Source: Fibrobacterales bacterium
GTDB lineage: Bacteria > Fibrobacterota > Fibrobacteria > Fibrobacterales > JAOPTW01
Direction of reading: 5' to 3'
Assembly: GCA_051532055.1 (NCBI GenBank)
Contig: JAOPTX010000016.1
Coordinates: 36,059 to 100,058 of the forward strand
DNA length: 64,000 nt
Made by a program: the position numbers and the translations under genes. The notes under the pieces were generated by a model. The model made no database searches, was not told the origin of the DNA, and saw only the letters and a program-made list of their open reading frames with translations. This document shows, one piece after another, positions 53,304 through 58,658 of this stretch (position 1 is the stretch's first letter; every line of letters begins with the position of its first letter).

Positions 53304-54635
53304 ATGACGACACACCCCCTTGTTATCACTCTATTGATACTTCTCAGTATCAACCTCATTATCTTAATTCTTGTGCTCATTAAAACCAGGGCTTCATCCG
53401 CACAAAAACCCATAACACAGTTTTCAGAGTCTATTACTCAACTCCTCCACGATTCATTTAATCAAAATCGCAATGACAGTCTCCATCGTTCATCTCTCCA
53501 GCGAGAGGAGCTCAACAATAGCCTTCAACGCGTCTCTGACTCCCTTTCTCAACGACTCTCAGAGAGCGCAACACAGCAAAAAGAACAACTTGAGCTTTTT
53601 TCAAATGTCCTCCAAAGTCTGAGTAACTCAAATGAAGCACGTTTTACCAAACTCAATGCCACTCTCAGTGAAAAAATCACCGCACTCCAAACCGATAACA
53701 ACAAAAGGCTCGACCTCATCAACCATACTGTTGATGAAAAGCTTCACAAAACTCTCGAAGAACGCTTGGGCCACTCATTTAAACTGGTCTCTGAGCAACT
53801 CGAAAAGGTGCAAAAAGGACTGGGCGAAATGCAAACCCTCGCCCATGGTGTCGGTGACCTCAAACGGGTTTTAACCAACGTAAAAACCAAGGGAGTACTG
53901 GGCGAATATCAATTAGCCAATATTTTAGAGCAACTCCTTACTCCAGCACAATACTCTTCAAACGTTAAAACCAAGAAAGGGAGTGACGCTATTGTAGAAT
54001 TTGCCATCAAACTCCCTGGCAGGAATGAGACCAATGAGACCGTTTGGATTCCCATCGATGCAAAGTTCCCCACTGAGCACTACCAAGAACTCTTGATGAT
54101 GTATGAAACAGGAGACAAAGCAGTCATTGACACCGCTCAAAAAGCGCTCTACAAAACCATCCGCCAGTGTGCCAAAGACATTGCTACCAAATATATTGAC
54201 CCACCACACACTACTGATTTCGCCATACTCTTTCTTCCTATTGAAGGGCTCTATGCCGAGGTACTACGGGACCATGAACTCTTTCAAACGCTTCAACGAG
54301 ACTATCATGTAGTCGTTGCAGGCCCCACCACACTCTCTGCCCTCCTCAATTCTCTTCAAATGGGTTTTAAAACCCTTGCTATTGAGCAACGTTCGAGCGA
54401 AGTTTGGAACATTCTCGGAGCCGTTAAAACCGAATTCAATAAGTTTGGCACCATTCTCGACAAAACTCAAAAGAAACTTGATGAGGCCAGTAAAACTATC
54501 GAATCTGCAGGAGTACGTACCCGAGCAATTGAACGCAAACTCCGTGATGTTGAAGAGATCCCTCTGCAACAGGATTCACAGCAATTTTCTGACATTCTTC
54601 CCTCATCCCCTGATTTAGAGAAGGTTGAAGATTAA
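53304..54635 (+). CDS. rmuC: DNA recombination protein RmuC
   Basis: N-terminal TM plus coiled coil; LKRVLTNVKTKG..GE, PIDAKFP, KYIDPP.TTDFA, GPTTL. Confidence 0.93.
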   Translation: MTTHPLVITLLILLSINLIILILVLIKTRASSAQKPITQFSESITQLLHDSFNQNRNDSLHRSSLQREELNNSLQRVSDSLSQRLSESATQQKEQLELFSNVLQSLSNSNEARFTKLNATLSEKITALQTDNNKRLDLINHTVDEKLHKTLEERLGHSFKLVSEQLEKVQKGLGEMQTLAHGVGDLKRVLTNVKTKGVLGEYQLANILEQLLTPAQYSSNVKTKKGSDAIVEFAIKLPGRNETNETVWIPIDAKFPTEHYQELLMMYETGDKAVIDTAQKALYKTIRQCAKDIATKYIDPPHTTDFAILFLPIEGLYAEVLRDHELFQTLQRDYHVVVAGPTTLSALLNSLQMGFKTLAIEQRSSEVWNILGAVKTEFNKFGTILDKTQKKLDEASKTIESAGVRTRAIERKLRDVEEIPLQQDSQQFSDILPSSPDLEKVED

Positions 54636-54767: not shown

Positions 54768-55454
54768 ATGAAATTAGCACTTATTATACCTCTATTACTC
54801 CTTTTACTTCTTGGGTGCTCTTATGTACCGCCAAACTACTCTGCAATGCTTATTCAGTCTCGGGACCCCAGTAATACCATGCAAAGTAATATTGGCTTTA
54901 GCGGAACCAACTTAGGGATTAATATTGGAAAACCAAACCAAGCAGACTCAGCAGCACTTTCAGAGTATCCAAAAACGACCTTTACTCAGAGCGTCTTCTC
55001 ATTCGATTATTTTATCAATACCGAAAGCTTTCATTTTGCACCCAACCTTTCGAATACAAACACTTCTCTTGGGATGGGTTTCGATTATGACAACACATTC
55101 CTTGTTATGGTTACTCCTGGTGTACATTTTACCGGAAAAAGTGGCACCAATTTATACCCTACCTCTTTAGATGTTAAAAAGGATTATTTTGTCAATTTTC
55201 ACACCAGTGTAAATCTATCAAGTACAAAAGGGAATGTGATTCTCATCTCTAATGACATATTCCAAAGTCAATTTATTGAAACCAGTCGATATCAAGAATT
55301 TTCAAATCATGTGACACCGTACATGAACAAACTTGCTCTTTCACTCTTTTTCTATGACCGAGCAATTTTTGCCGGCCTTGAATTGAGTATGATCAATAGC
55401 TACAACTTTGATTACTATGGTGCAGGTGTTATGTTCACCTTTGGCTTTAAATAA
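54768..55454 (+). CDS. Hypothetical lipoprotein / small outer-membrane protein
   Basis: Lipobox LLGC; TTGTCA-N17-TATCTT promoter upstream. Confidence 0.65.
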   Translation: MKLALIIPLLLLLLLGCSYVPPNYSAMLIQSRDPSNTMQSNIGFSGTNLGINIGKPNQADSAALSEYPKTTFTQSVFSFDYFINTESFHFAPNLSNTNTSLGMGFDYDNTFLVMVTPGVHFTGKSGTNLYPTSLDVKKDYFVNFHTSVNLSSTKGNVILISNDIFQSQFIETSRYQEFSNHVTPYMNKLALSLFFYDRAIFAGLELSMINSYNFDYYGAGVMFTFGFK

Positions 55455-55464
55455 CACGCTCCTT

Positions 55465-57006
55465 TTAAAACATAACCTGACTATACTTTCTATCAAGACT
55501 GCGATATTGCAACGCCTCTGAAAGGTGGTTTGCTTCAATCATTTTACTCTCTGCCAAATCTGCGATCGTACGGGCAACTTTAAGAATCCTATCATAGGCT
55601 CTTGCTGAAAAGCCCATTTTTACCGTTGCCATCTTAAGTATCTCCTGTGCATCAGCCCCCAATACACAGTGAATACGAATAAGCCGTCCCTGCATATGCG
55701 CATTACAAAAAACACCAGGAACATTTACAAATCGATCCCCTTGTATTTCACGGGCCTTTTGAACCCGTGTACGAATTGAAGCAGAGGTCTCTCCCTCTTT
55801 TTTATCACTCATTTCTTGATAATTCAATGAACCCACTGAAACATGAATATCAATGCGATCAAGAAGAGGACCCGAAATTTTATTCATATATCGAATAACT
55901 TCATTCTCACTACAGGTACAGGGTTGAATAGGATCCCCATAGTAACCACAAGGGCAAGGGTTCATAGCTGCTCCCAGCATAAATCTCGAAGGATAGGTCA
56001 CTGTCATAGCAGTTCGCGAGATCGTCACGACATTATCCTCTAAAGGTTGCCGTAGCACCTCAAGTACCGGCTTTGAAAATTCTGGCAACTCATCCAAAAA
56101 AAGCAAACCATTATGAGCCAAACTTACCTCTCCAGGCCTCGGGTAGGCCCCGCCTCCCACAAGTGACGTATTCGAAACCGTATGATGCGGGCTTCGAAAG
56201 GGGCGCTCCACAATGAGTGATTCAAACCCTTTAAAGAGCCCTGCCCCACTGTGAATCGTCGTGGTTTCAATGGCTTCTTCTTTAGTCATATTGGGTAGTA
56301 TCGACGAAATCCTCCGAGCACACATGCTTTTCCCTGTCCCTGGCGACCCTATGAGCAGAAAGTTATGAGCCCCTGATGCTGCGATCTCCAAAGCGCGACG
56401 CGTCACCTCTTGCCCTTTTACATCACTGAAATCCAGTGCGTATTCTTTACTGGGGTGTAAGTCATCTCGAGATGTCTCAACCTTATACGCATCTCTTTCG
56501 CCACCCAACACCTCAATGCACTCTTTGACATTCCCAACGCCATACACATCCACCCCATCTATAATTGCCGCTTCAGCGGCACTTGTCCTTGGAAGTATCA
56601 TGGATTTAAATCCTTGCTTTTTTGCAAAAATTGCAATAGAGAGCGCCCCTTTTATCCGTTTCACATCACCACAGAGAGAAAGCTCTCCGAGAATAAGTGT
56701 TTTATCAAGTTCAATATAAGGAACCTGTTCGGACGAAATAAGCATCCCTACTGCAAGGGGGAGATCAAAGGATGACCCCTCCTTTTTTACATCTGCTGGG
56801 GCCATATTTATAGTGGTTCTTTTATTATAGATCTGATACCCAAAGTTTTTTAGAGCCGCACTCACTCTATCCCTAGACTCACGTACAGCAGAGTCAGGGA
56901 GCCCGACCAAGGTAAAGCCAGGCATTCCATCTCTACAATCTACCTCGATAAGCACTTCAAAGGCTTCGATACCCCATAATGCTGCCGCCTTTATGATTGA
57001 GATCAT
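55465..57006 (-). CDS. comM: YifB/ComM family AAA+ ATPase
   Basis: VGLPD.AVRESR.RV, DLPLA, GSPGTGKS, RPFRSPHH, PGEVSLAHNG.LFLDE, AMNPCPCG, SGPLLDRID. Confidence 0.92.
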   Translation of the reverse strand: MISIIKAAALWGIEAFEVLIEVDCRDGMPGFTLVGLPDSAVRESRDRVSAALKNFGYQIYNKRTTINMAPADVKKEGSSFDLPLAVGMLISSEQVPYIELDKTLILGELSLCGDVKRIKGALSIAIFAKKQGFKSMILPRTSAAEAAIIDGVDVYGVGNVKECIEVLGGERDAYKVETSRDDLHPSKEYALDFSDVKGQEVTRRALEIAASGAHNFLLIGSPGTGKSMCARRISSILPNMTKEEAIETTTIHSGAGLFKGFESLIVERPFRSPHHTVSNTSLVGGGAYPRPGEVSLAHNGLLFLDELPEFSKPVLEVLRQPLEDNVVTISRTAMTVTYPSRFMLGAAMNPCPCGYYGDPIQPCTCSENEVIRYMNKISGPLLDRIDIHVSVGSLNYQEMSDKKEGETSASIRTRVQKAREIQGDRFVNVPGVFCNAHMQGRLIRIHCVLGADAQEILKMATVKMGFSARAYDRILKVARTIADLAESKMIEANHLSEALQYRSLDRKYSQVMF

Positions 57007-57299
57007 ACCAGTTCCAGTTGAGGTGAGGTCTCACTTCCCAAAAGAGAGTGATGTTCATAAGCGGTAACAACCTGAGATTGAATCTCTTTAATAAGACCCG
57101 CTGACAAAAAATTATAGGCACTCATTGGGGTATCCTGTTTTAACTCAGGTAGTTTTAAATGATACCCCAGCCCTGTTTTAAAAAGTTTAAGCCCCCTGAG
57201 AACCAATTGATTATTGATTGAAACATCGGTTGTCCCTTTAAAGGTGCTCCCAAAATAAGCAGGGAACGGCTTGAATGCAAGTACTCGTATTTGAATCAT
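57003..57299 (-). CDS. Divergent SpoVG-like protein
   Basis: FKGTTDVSINNQLVLRGLKL...GYHLKLP aligns by eye with the neighbouring SpoVGs. Confidence 0.6.
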   Translation of the reverse strand: MIQIRVLAFKPFPAYFGSTFKGTTDVSINNQLVLRGLKLFKTGLGYHLKLPELKQDTPMSAYNFLSAGLIKEIQSQVVTAYEHHSLLGSETSPQLELV

Positions 57300-57307
57300 A
57301 TTCTCTC

Positions 57308-57592
57308 CTATACCACTTTCTCTAAAACATTTGAATACTCATTCAACACTTCGCACTCGACATACTCACGAAAATCCTTTTTTACGGGATAAAAAATCTG
57401 CCGAAATTCTTCACCTTTCTGAGTGAACTCGACAGGATACGATACAAAAAGTCCATTGCTCCCATCATATACTCTGAGATTTGTCAATTGCAATACGTCA
57501 TTGAGTACTACTCTGGCAAGAGCCCGAAGGCGCCCTTCAGAACGACTTACGGGATAAATTGAAATATGGGTTATGGTTAATCCTGCAATCAT
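57308..57592 (-). CDS. spoVG: SpoVG family nucleic-acid-binding protein
   Basis: LRALARVVLND...LRVYDGSNGLFVSYP...IFYP. Confidence 0.85.
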   Translation of the reverse strand: MIAGLTITHISIYPVSRSEGRLRALARVVLNDVLQLTNLRVYDGSNGLFVSYPVEFTQKGEEFRQIFYPVKKDFREYVECEVLNEYSNVLEKVV

Positions 57593-57600
57593 AGTACCCC

Positions 57601-57882
57601 CTATGCCGCTACTGCATGCTGTTCAAATTCTTTGAGCACCGCTTGTTGGATGTACTCTTTAAAATCTCGGGTAATGGGATGATATACCGAACGATACTCT
57701 TGACCTTCCTTTTTAGGTTCACTCGGATAGCCTACAAAAAGCCCATTTACGCTATCATAGATTCTTAGACTACTCAGCGTAATTTGGTCATTCAGTACCA
57801 CTCGGGCAAAGGCTTTGAGCATACCTTTTGATTCTGTAAGGGGAAATACATTCAGTTTTGTAATGAGAAGTTGTTGTGACAT
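57601..57882 (-). CDS. spoVG: SpoVG family nucleic-acid-binding protein
   Basis: LKAFARVVLND...LRIYDSVNGLFVGYPS...YRSVYHPIT; AGGAGG RBS. Confidence 0.88.
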   Translation of the reverse strand: MSQQLLITKLNVFPLTESKGMLKAFARVVLNDQITLSSLRIYDSVNGLFVGYPSEPKKEGQEYRSVYHPITRDFKEYIQQAVLKEFEQHAVAA

Positions 57883-57938
57883 TGCTGCCTCCTTGTTTAG
57901 TTAATTGGTTATGTCAAACTCAGACGAATATCCACTTA

Positions 57939-57955
57939 TGCAAGAGGTGTGCCAA
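57939..57955 (-). promoter_or_regulatory. Sigma54 (-24/-12) promoter TTGGCACACCTCTTGCA
   Basis: TGGCAC-N5-TTGCA with GG-N10-GC spacing, 56 nt upstream of first spoVG. Confidence 0.8.
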
Positions 57956-58136
57956 TTCAGTTTTTAGGCCATAATCAAACAATTACCACTCAAACTCATT
58001 GACGGCTCTGACTACAACTATCCAGATGTGATCATAATTGATTAAAACTGATTAAAAGAGTTTAAAATGGATATATTTCTCTTTCAGTTCTCTAGTATAC
58101 TTAGTACTATTACTATGCTCAGCTATTGGAGAACCC

Positions 58137-58658
58137 ATGGAACAGACATCTACCTCAATCCCTTTTCTTGAATCATATCCTTATGAAGTGTTACACATTA
58201 ATGATTTTCATTACACTAACATCATACAAGAACTTCAAGATCACTTTAAGCATGCCTCCAAAGTCTTTAGCTCAATACCTGACGAAAAATTACACTACCG
58301 ATATCAATCTGAAAAATGGAGTGTCGCAGAAGTACTGGGGCATCTCATCGATCACCATTTACTTTTTATGCATCGCGCTATTACCTTTGCTCGGGGATTT
58401 GAAAACCCAATTCTTCCCGCAGATGAAAATCTTTGGGTTACCAATAGTGTACTGGGTAATAAAAGTTTTCAGACCCTTGTTGATCTTTATGAAAAATCAT
58501 CTACCCTCTTTGAAACCCATATTATCTTACTCGAGAAGAGCCAGCTTCAAAACAGCGGTATTGCCAATAACATTGAGATGACCATTGAACAGCTTCTCTC
58601 ATATTTTATTCTGCACGAGAAGCATCATTTTGATTTTATTCTTTCACACTATCTGTAA
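58137..58658 (+). CDS. DinB family protein
   Basis: YRY..EKWSVAEVLGHL, HEKHH. Confidence 0.85.
   Translation: MEQTSTSIPFLESYPYEVLHINDFHYTNIIQELQDHFKHASKVFSSIPDEKLHYRYQSEKWSVAEVLGHLIDHHLLFMHRAITFARGFENPILPADENLWVTNSVLGNKSFQTLVDLYEKSSTLFETHIILLEKSQLQNSGIANNIEMTIEQLLSYFILHEKHHFDFILSHYL

Follow-up and report, generated by a model that had tools for sequence, protein, structure and literature searches.

ComM is a recombination helicase that has only recently come to be understood, and its loading is only now being worked out. SpoVG is a widespread protein that affects sporulation, virulence, and biofilms by a mechanism still under debate, and classical sigma-54 operons, for example, those dependent on NtrC, carry a site for an enhancer-binding activator ~100 nt upstream. 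Here we analyzed a 64,000-nt stretch of DNA (the window) from a bacterium of the order Fibrobacterales, class Fibrobacteria (GenBank assembly GCA_051532055.1, contig JAOPTX010000016.1, positions 36,059 to 100,058, forward strand), in which three spoVG genes and comM stand in a row behind a sigma-54 promoter. The spoVG-comM operon is real, and it is a new arrangement of known parts. In the literature searched, supplements excluded, no description of a SpoVG-ComM (or SpoVG-YifB) link was found, papers that name both SpoVG and ComM being judged by title and the beginning of the abstract, and a search for Fibrobacter together with SpoVG, sigma-54, or, by title, natural competence gave nothing relevant.

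In Vibrio cholerae, Helicobacter pylori, and other Gram-negative bacteria, ComM is described (PMC6158740, PMC12012524) as a hexameric branch-migration helicase that acts in natural transformation, needs a loader, and is recruited by DprA; according to the latter source, it is the winged-helix domain of DprA that recruits ComM, and ComM is transformation-specific in the Gram-negative species studied. The ComM of the window belongs to the same family and has the same domain set, and, as in the Vibrio and Helicobacter systems, a DprA with a winged-helix domain is encoded in the genome of the window (G000; 5.17 Mb, 39.6% G+C). Here, comM closes a sigma-54 operon and appears to be translationally coupled to genes for SpoVG-fold proteins, a partner and a mode of control of which those papers make no mention. 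The SpoVGs of Bacillus subtilis, Staphylococcus aureus, Listeria, and Borrelia burgdorferi (PDB 2ia9, 2i9x, and 2i9z) share fold and family with those encoded here, and PMC3688583 states that SpoVG cannot bind DNA without a conserved doublet of adjacent basic residues (K50-R51 in S. aureus, R53-R54 in B. burgdorferi) and that its C-terminal helix sets sequence specificity. Unlike these known proteins, the SpoVGs of the class do not have the K/R doublet in the aligned place, and one to three paralogs are fixed upstream of comM. The first-pass annotation of the window, made from the sequence alone, rightly described SpoVG as best known from Firmicutes and spirochaetes, yet the protein is near-universal in Fibrobacterota too (144 of 151 genomes). 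Like classical sigma-54 operons, the locus combines a -24/-12 consensus with a repeat array 50-140 nt upstream and with many activator genes in the genome; no activator gene lies beside it.

On the minus strand, four abutting frames encode SpoVG-A, SpoVG-B, SpoVG-C, and ComM, separated by gaps of 8 nt and 8 nt and then by a 4-nt ATGA overlap (Table 1). The first-pass annotation had proposed this series, from the promoter through two spoVG genes and a divergent spoVG-like gene to comM, and both the coordinates and the family profiles bear it out. Its view that a single sigma-54-driven operon is involved is supported by the exact -24/-12 site, the tight gene spacing, the presence of rpoN in G000 (395 bits against a cut-off of 277), and the 14 genes of that genome with Sigma54_activat matches, several of which adjoin candidate promoters such as that of ahpC. 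Judged from the sequence, the four genes look like one such operon, and we infer that they are co-transcribed. No minus-strand terminator-like site was found within the operon, and sigma-70-like matches there are at chance level (6 found versus 6.0 expected). The intergenic gap 5' of spoVG-A is 254 nt long, and no Rfam family matched over positions 55000-58600, leader included. A small marine metatranscriptome run in which 6% of the words were present gave two short contigs, 56131-56261 in comM and 57958-58100 upstream, which do not bear on co-transcription or on the start site. Coding DNA is 80-87% identical between G000 and a comparison genome of the same genus (G001), and the codon differences between the two reveal purifying selection on all four genes: 25 synonymous and 9 non-synonymous in spoVG-A, 31 and 4 in spoVG-B, 40 and 4 in spoVG-C, and 230 and 39 in comM. 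The comM product is a member of the AAA+ branch-migration helicase family with a predicted helicase activity; the ChlI (PF13541), Mg_chelatase (PF01078), and Mg_chelatase_C (PF13335) domains are all present, the Walker A (GSPGTGKS) and Walker B-like motifs are intact, and FLDELPEF and NPCPCGY are readable.

The arrangement was surveyed with the profiles PF04026 and TIGR00368 in 41 genomes of the same order and in a phylum sample of 151 genomes, which added 21 same-order genomes and 15 class genomes of other orders; adjacency was checked by listed coordinates, 20 fetched loci, and extra look-ups. In 77/77 genomes of the class, G000 included, comM has a spoVG gene immediately 5' of it in the same orientation (62/62 in the same order, with 41/41 in the initial set, and 15/15 in other orders). 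The synteny that the first-pass annotation had singled out for a survey is thus conserved throughout the class sample. In one genome (G095; L147/L148), the pair is distributed over two contigs whose ends overlap by ~118 nt, with a spoVG-comM spacer of ~0.5 kb; a repeat or mobile sequence may be present at this insertion, which coincides with the assembly break. The sample held 78 genomes of sister classes, 67 of them with both genes, and adjacency was found in 0 of the 66 that had both genes and listed positions (in G094, G045, and G056, one weak SpoVG match each was unlisted). It was likewise found in 0 of 65 genomes with both genes from another phylum of the Fibrobacteres-Chlorobi-Bacteroidetes (FCB) group, the one that holds the Zixibacteria record L113. 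In other phyla, SpoVG profiles detected SpoVG within 2.5 kb at 0 of 80 comM loci, which had been collected with a ComM single-protein query at 49-56% identity.

Around this pair, the flanking genes vary from locus to locus (CBM9, type II secretion system F protein, exonuclease, PCMT, HsdM, FolB, and others), and the module alone is kept. Every SpoVG-C-type gene seen adjoins comM, with spacings of -11 to +40 nt. One reading of these data is an inherited accident, in which a single ancestral rearrangement joined two genes without a common function and the pair persisted by operon inertia. The single origin in one class, with adjacency in none of the control sets, fits such a history, as does the lack of interaction evidence for SpoVG and ComM. 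We regard it as improbable because the class spans several orders, ComM identities within it fall to 43%, and neighbors have been wholly replaced, yet spacing, strand, gene order, and the sigma-54 promoter were all kept, and because paralogs were added inside the operon and not elsewhere.

Table 1. Features of the spoVG-comM operon and its upstream region (positions in the window)
Feature	Position	Strand	Description
Putative upstream activator site	58012..58060	-	Two TTAATCA half-sites, TGATCAC, and a TGGATAG box; ~100 nt 5' of the -24 element
Sigma-54 (-24/-12) promoter TGGCACACCTCTTGCA	57939..57954	-	Exact TGGCAC-N5-TTGCW consensus; GG-N10-GC spacing correct
Leader	57883..57938	-	56 nt; GGAGG ribosome-binding site 7 nt 5' of ATG, as read from the sequence
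spoVG-A	57601..57882	-	93 aa; Pfam PF04026, 67 bits (cut-off 29.6)
spoVG-B	57308..57592	-	94 aa; PF04026, 69.9 bits; 46.5% identical to SpoVG-A
spoVG-C	57003..57299	-	98 aa; PF04026, 19.7 bits, below the cut-off of 29.6; no NCBIfam match
comM/yifB	55465..57006	-	513 aa; TIGR00368, 615 bits (cut-off 362.4), profile positions 3-499 of 499; start overlaps the spoVG-C stop

The promoter TGGCACACCTCTTGCA, 56 nt before the first ATG, is the sole exact match to TGGCAC-N5-TTGCW in the window, and it is identical, together with the next 17 nt, in G000 and G001. A sigma-54-like site was present 5' of the first spoVG gene in 21 of 22 loci read. Among the first 21 of these, 15 had the exact GG and GC and five more had a weakened -12 element (TTGTT, TTGTA, or TTCCA); L146 was an extra positive. 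The sole locus without such a site is L021 (G002:C53), in which spoVG overlaps comM by 4 nt. The ComM of L021 is only 26% identical to that of the window and its family match is split in two, so that this copy of the module may be in decay. Across G000, the strict sigma-54 pattern occurs 20 times versus 5.2 ± 3.0 expected from 20 first-order Markov simulations, although 4 of the 20 matches are one repeated coding sequence. The word TGGCACTGACATTGCA recurs at C25:51, C25:558, C105:223, and in the C148:640 region of this genome, in apparent repeated coding segments at contig ends; these copies make sigma-54-like sites look more numerous than they are and probably do not act as promoters. The strongest candidate sites precede, among others, amtB, nirB, and the genes for flagellin, groES, grpE, ahpC, a solute-binding protein, and polysaccharide functions, and amtB, nirB, and flagellin are classic sigma-54 targets. 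Weaker, TGGTAC-type matches lie mostly inside genes. Strong sites at C12:25314, C79:1669, C24:38986, C94:3269, C67:3812, and C10:98730 belong to groES, grpE, ahpC, amtB, nirB, and flagellin. Those of groES and grpE have TTTCA/TGAAA words upstream in common, and sigma-54-type sites at chaperone genes and at flagellin in a Fibrobacterales genome may each merit attention.

Upstream of the promoter, the putative activator site contains TTAATCA half-sites at 58055-58049 and 58045-58039, 10 nt apart. This block is identical in G000 and G001, and nearby intergenic sequence differs. Half-sites of the type TTAATC/GATTAA, 2 to 5 per locus, were found in the same place in 6 of 8 Fibrobacterales loci. In five Fibrobacter-like genomes, the exact palindrome TGATTAATCA occurs in 11 copies, 1 to 4 per genome. 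Four of these genomes have it ~200 nt upstream of spoVG-comM, where 5 of the 11 copies lie, and two of the four have no copy elsewhere. The palindrome thus appears nearly private to the spoVG-comM operon in Fibrobacter-like genomes. The upstream array differs between orders: instead of TGATTAATCA palindromes, 11 of 14 loci from other orders have 3-6 same-strand direct repeats of TTCAC, TTGCAC, or CTGCAC, with a 10-nt period, 46-141 nt before the -24 element. Such arrays were seen in L025-L032, L035-L037, and L146; sites for sigma-54 activators do not usually consist of direct repeats in phase. In L027, L028, and L034-L037, a G+C-rich leader of 87-157 nt, in which inverted repeats seem to be present, separates the sigma-54 site from spoVG. 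In the window, TGGATA boxes within 57925-57937 and 58018-58026 (minus strand) place TGGATAG ~60 nt upstream of the promoter and TGGATAT just downstream of it; both are kept in G000 and G001 and could form a repressor or autoregulation site. An activator site common to the operon and the other sigma-54 promoters of G000 (groES, grpE, ahpC, etc.) was considered and rejected, as each of the latter has a different upstream repeat, and no palindrome clustering was found elsewhere in G000.

The SpoVGs of the class are diverged. Their PF04026 scores are 62-75 bits versus 100-117 bits for the principal, that is, best-scoring, copy of sister-class genomes, in which extra paralogs score lower. In five of six sister-class loci read, spoVG is followed by the genes for ribosomal protein L25 (rplY) and peptidyl-tRNA hydrolase (pth); in the sixth, spoVG follows a GHMP kinase gene. 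In the class, spoVG is found outside the rplY (ctc)-pth neighborhood and before comM in all 77 genomes, which indicates that the gene left that neighborhood in the class ancestor. The special feature of the class is thus a diverged SpoVG subfamily moved to comM. No SpoVG gene was found in G000 beyond the three in the operon, a fourth match being a 16-bit hit inside a 480-aa frame. In the phylogenetic tree, canonical SpoVGs form a clade with support of 100/99, and an order-level comM-linked clade (96/95) holds both SpoVG-A and SpoVG-B, a pair seen only in G000 and G001. Eight of ten C-type sequences form one group (93/97), and the other two, both on long branches, remain unplaced. Genes of the C type were found in G000, in G001, and in 7 of 13 fetched loci of other orders, with an uncertain eighth (L033), and are absent from the Fibrobacter-like family. 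Separately, the sister-class genomes G043, G049, G051, G053, and G047 have 4 to 7 SpoVG matches each, some in tandem (G043:C19:21361-21978; G049:C172:9328-9940). None of these matches is on the comM contig, and the SpoVG expansion in these genomes is an independent one.

SpoVG-C, which scores below the family cut-off, was examined further. A C-type subfamily is recognizable in alignment at the same position in related genomes, and its profile matches the class SpoVG profile with 99.3% probability (E = 1.9e-20) in a profile-profile comparison. Against PDB SpoVG chains, the C-type profile gives E = 3.3e-7 and the class SpoVG profile E = 5e-19. The AlphaFold model of SpoVG-C (predicted local distance difference test score, 73.7) shows four strands plus a helix that spans residues 67-88, and its ten best Foldseek matches in the PDB are all SpoVG chains, with template modeling scores of 0.48-0.67 and E values from 1.4e-3 to 3e-2, none of them at or below 0.001. 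In a single-sequence search of 1.84 billion representatives, SpoVG-C had one true relative, 96% identical, and the four remaining matches were weak and to long proteins; its branch in the tree has a length of 4.5. By these profile and model comparisons, spoVG-C is a real SpoVG-fold gene, and it is best described from its sequence as a rapidly changing representative of an ancient SpoVG paralog, the C type, which is invariably found beside comM. A phage origin of the diverged SpoVGs was also considered and rejected: PHROGs profiles gave 23.8 bits for SpoVG-A and no match for SpoVG-B or SpoVG-C, the canonical sister-class protein scores better, and 14 of 50,697 phage records matched, at ~30% identity. 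Atlas look-alikes of the diverged SpoVG include clusters whose few classified members are phage, and in one Atlas cluster of such look-alikes, the commonest phylum is Fibrobacterota.

How these parts might work together can be put as follows. The operon would be read as a single unit from the sigma-54 promoter, which an enhancer-binding activator would switch on by binding the repeat array ~100 nt upstream. It would yield one to three SpoVG-fold proteins along with ComM, the AAA+ branch-migration helicase, and the 8-nt gaps and the ATGA overlap suggest that their translation is tightly coupled. In the class ancestor, spoVG would have left its place beside rplY and pth, moved before comM, and diverged; it would then have been duplicated into a primary type and the comM-proximal C type, the A/B pair being a further split in this genus only. 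The SpoVG-fold proteins may be nucleic-acid-binding accessory factors that aid ComM in finding recombination intermediates, in loading on them, or in processing them, and the substrates could be single strands entering during transformation or intermediates of repair. We give roughly an even chance to this reading, namely, an activator-gated operon with a sigma-54 promoter, from which ComM and SpoVG-fold proteins are made together as partners on DNA, and such a working partnership is the most likely reason for selection to have fixed the operon in the class. A narrower form of it, in which the SpoVGs are dedicated accessory subunits of ComM that load it on branched or single-stranded DNA or set its substrate specificity there, with a hetero-oligomer of the primary and C types docking on ComM, is put forward only tentatively and is somewhat doubtful.

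Several observations weigh against a partnership. None of the results shows binding or joint action. The 77 genomes all go back to one ancestral rearrangement and so are not independent cases. In HMMER alignments, the K-R doublet of 2ia9 and 2i9x falls on e-l of the class consensus, with E-P in SpoVG-A and E-F in SpoVG-B, and on E-L in the C type, and across class SpoVGs the position reads E-P, E-F, or D-P; SpoVG-A has lysines 1-3 residues after it (PSEPKKEG), and sister-class SpoVGs retain PSRKRK. Because the doublet is not kept in place, nucleic-acid binding by the class SpoVGs is not assured, and their ligand or their mode of binding may be another one. A search for longer proteins with a SpoVG-B-like part found no SpoVG fusion proteins, which is weak evidence. 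The ComM proteins of the class have no insertion or indel of their own, and a single residue sets them apart consistently from 76 outgroup ComMs, so that there is no visible co-adaptation; class-specific features of a docking site were sought in the same comparison and none was found. Finally, the DprA of G000 retains its winged-helix domain, so that a loader for ComM is already at hand. The idea that SpoVG substitutes for a missing DprA winged helix is rejected for G000 on the same ground; in five other class genomes, the DprA winged-helix matches are weak or absent. 

The same observations bear on a simpler possibility, that of co-regulation without partnership, in which SpoVG, like its counterparts in Firmicutes and Borrelia, is a DNA- or RNA-binding regulator that acts on other genes or on its own operon in stress or stationary phase, and comM is merely co-transcribed with it. 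Expression of spoVG from alternative sigma factors is common (PMC3688583), and the sigma-54 promoter of the class would be a further case. The comM-linked copies, being the only SpoVG genes in the class (in G000, only the three of the operon), would have to carry any general SpoVG role; the repeated boxes near the promoter, TGGATA in the window and TTCAC arrays elsewhere, could serve autoregulation; and ComM itself is without class-specific change. Co-regulation leaves unexplained, however, why, with all flanks replaced, the link to comM in particular persisted in each of the 77 genomes and why translation of the C type is in every case closely tied to that of comM, and the loss of the canonical DNA-binding doublet from its place tells against a regulator of this kind as well. 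We therefore consider it rather unlikely, and the partnership on DNA remains the reading that we prefer.

The first-pass annotation had gone further and placed the operon in a sigma-54-controlled competence program, that is, a regulon including genes for DNA uptake and processing, in which SpoVG hetero-oligomers would handle single-stranded DNA for ComM. The genome does encode rpoN, dprA, and comEC, and the transformation-specific role of ComM in the Gram-negative species studied (PMC12012524) would suit such a program. However, no sigma-54-like site stands upstream of dprA or comEC: within 500 nt, the best sigma-54-like words agree with the 11-position consensus at only 6 to 8 positions, and GG and GC never occur together in them. 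Among the 37 annotated genes downstream of candidate sigma-54 sites, none is a competence gene (0/37); comEA, comF, and pilin genes were not examined. The scarcity of TGATTAATCA outside the spoVG-comM locus in Fibrobacter-like genomes points the same way. The competence program as proposed found no support in these results, and we judge the full model to be highly unlikely.

The pairing of spoVG and comM, kept in every class genome sampled, raises the testable hypothesis that SpoVG and ComM act together on DNA. It has its own sigma-54 promoter and a putative dedicated upstream site, and it presents a case of a gene from a housekeeping context that was captured into a conditional operon and diversified there. 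If the SpoVGs are indeed dedicated ComM subunits, SpoVG would gain a defined biochemical role in recombination, and ComM would gain a second partner besides DprA. Fibrobacter succinogenes, in which comM is preceded by a single spoVG, is in culture, which puts transcript mapping and protein biochemistry within reach, and the answer may bear on gene exchange in fiber-degrading Fibrobacteria.

Several genes near the operon, or elsewhere in the genome, were noted in passing. On the other side of the 254-nt intergenic region, at 58137-58658 (plus strand), a gene of the DinB_2 superfamily is divergent from the operon; a 173-aa open reading frame, not annotated, stands at its position in G001, and none was found in other relatives. 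An RmuC-family DNA recombination gene (252 bits) lies at 53304-54635 (plus strand), ~0.8 kb past the end of comM and on the opposite strand, with a lipoprotein-like gene between the two. RmuC was not seen beside comM in those loci of relatives that have annotated flanks. G000 also encodes a protein with a Fib_succ_major domain.

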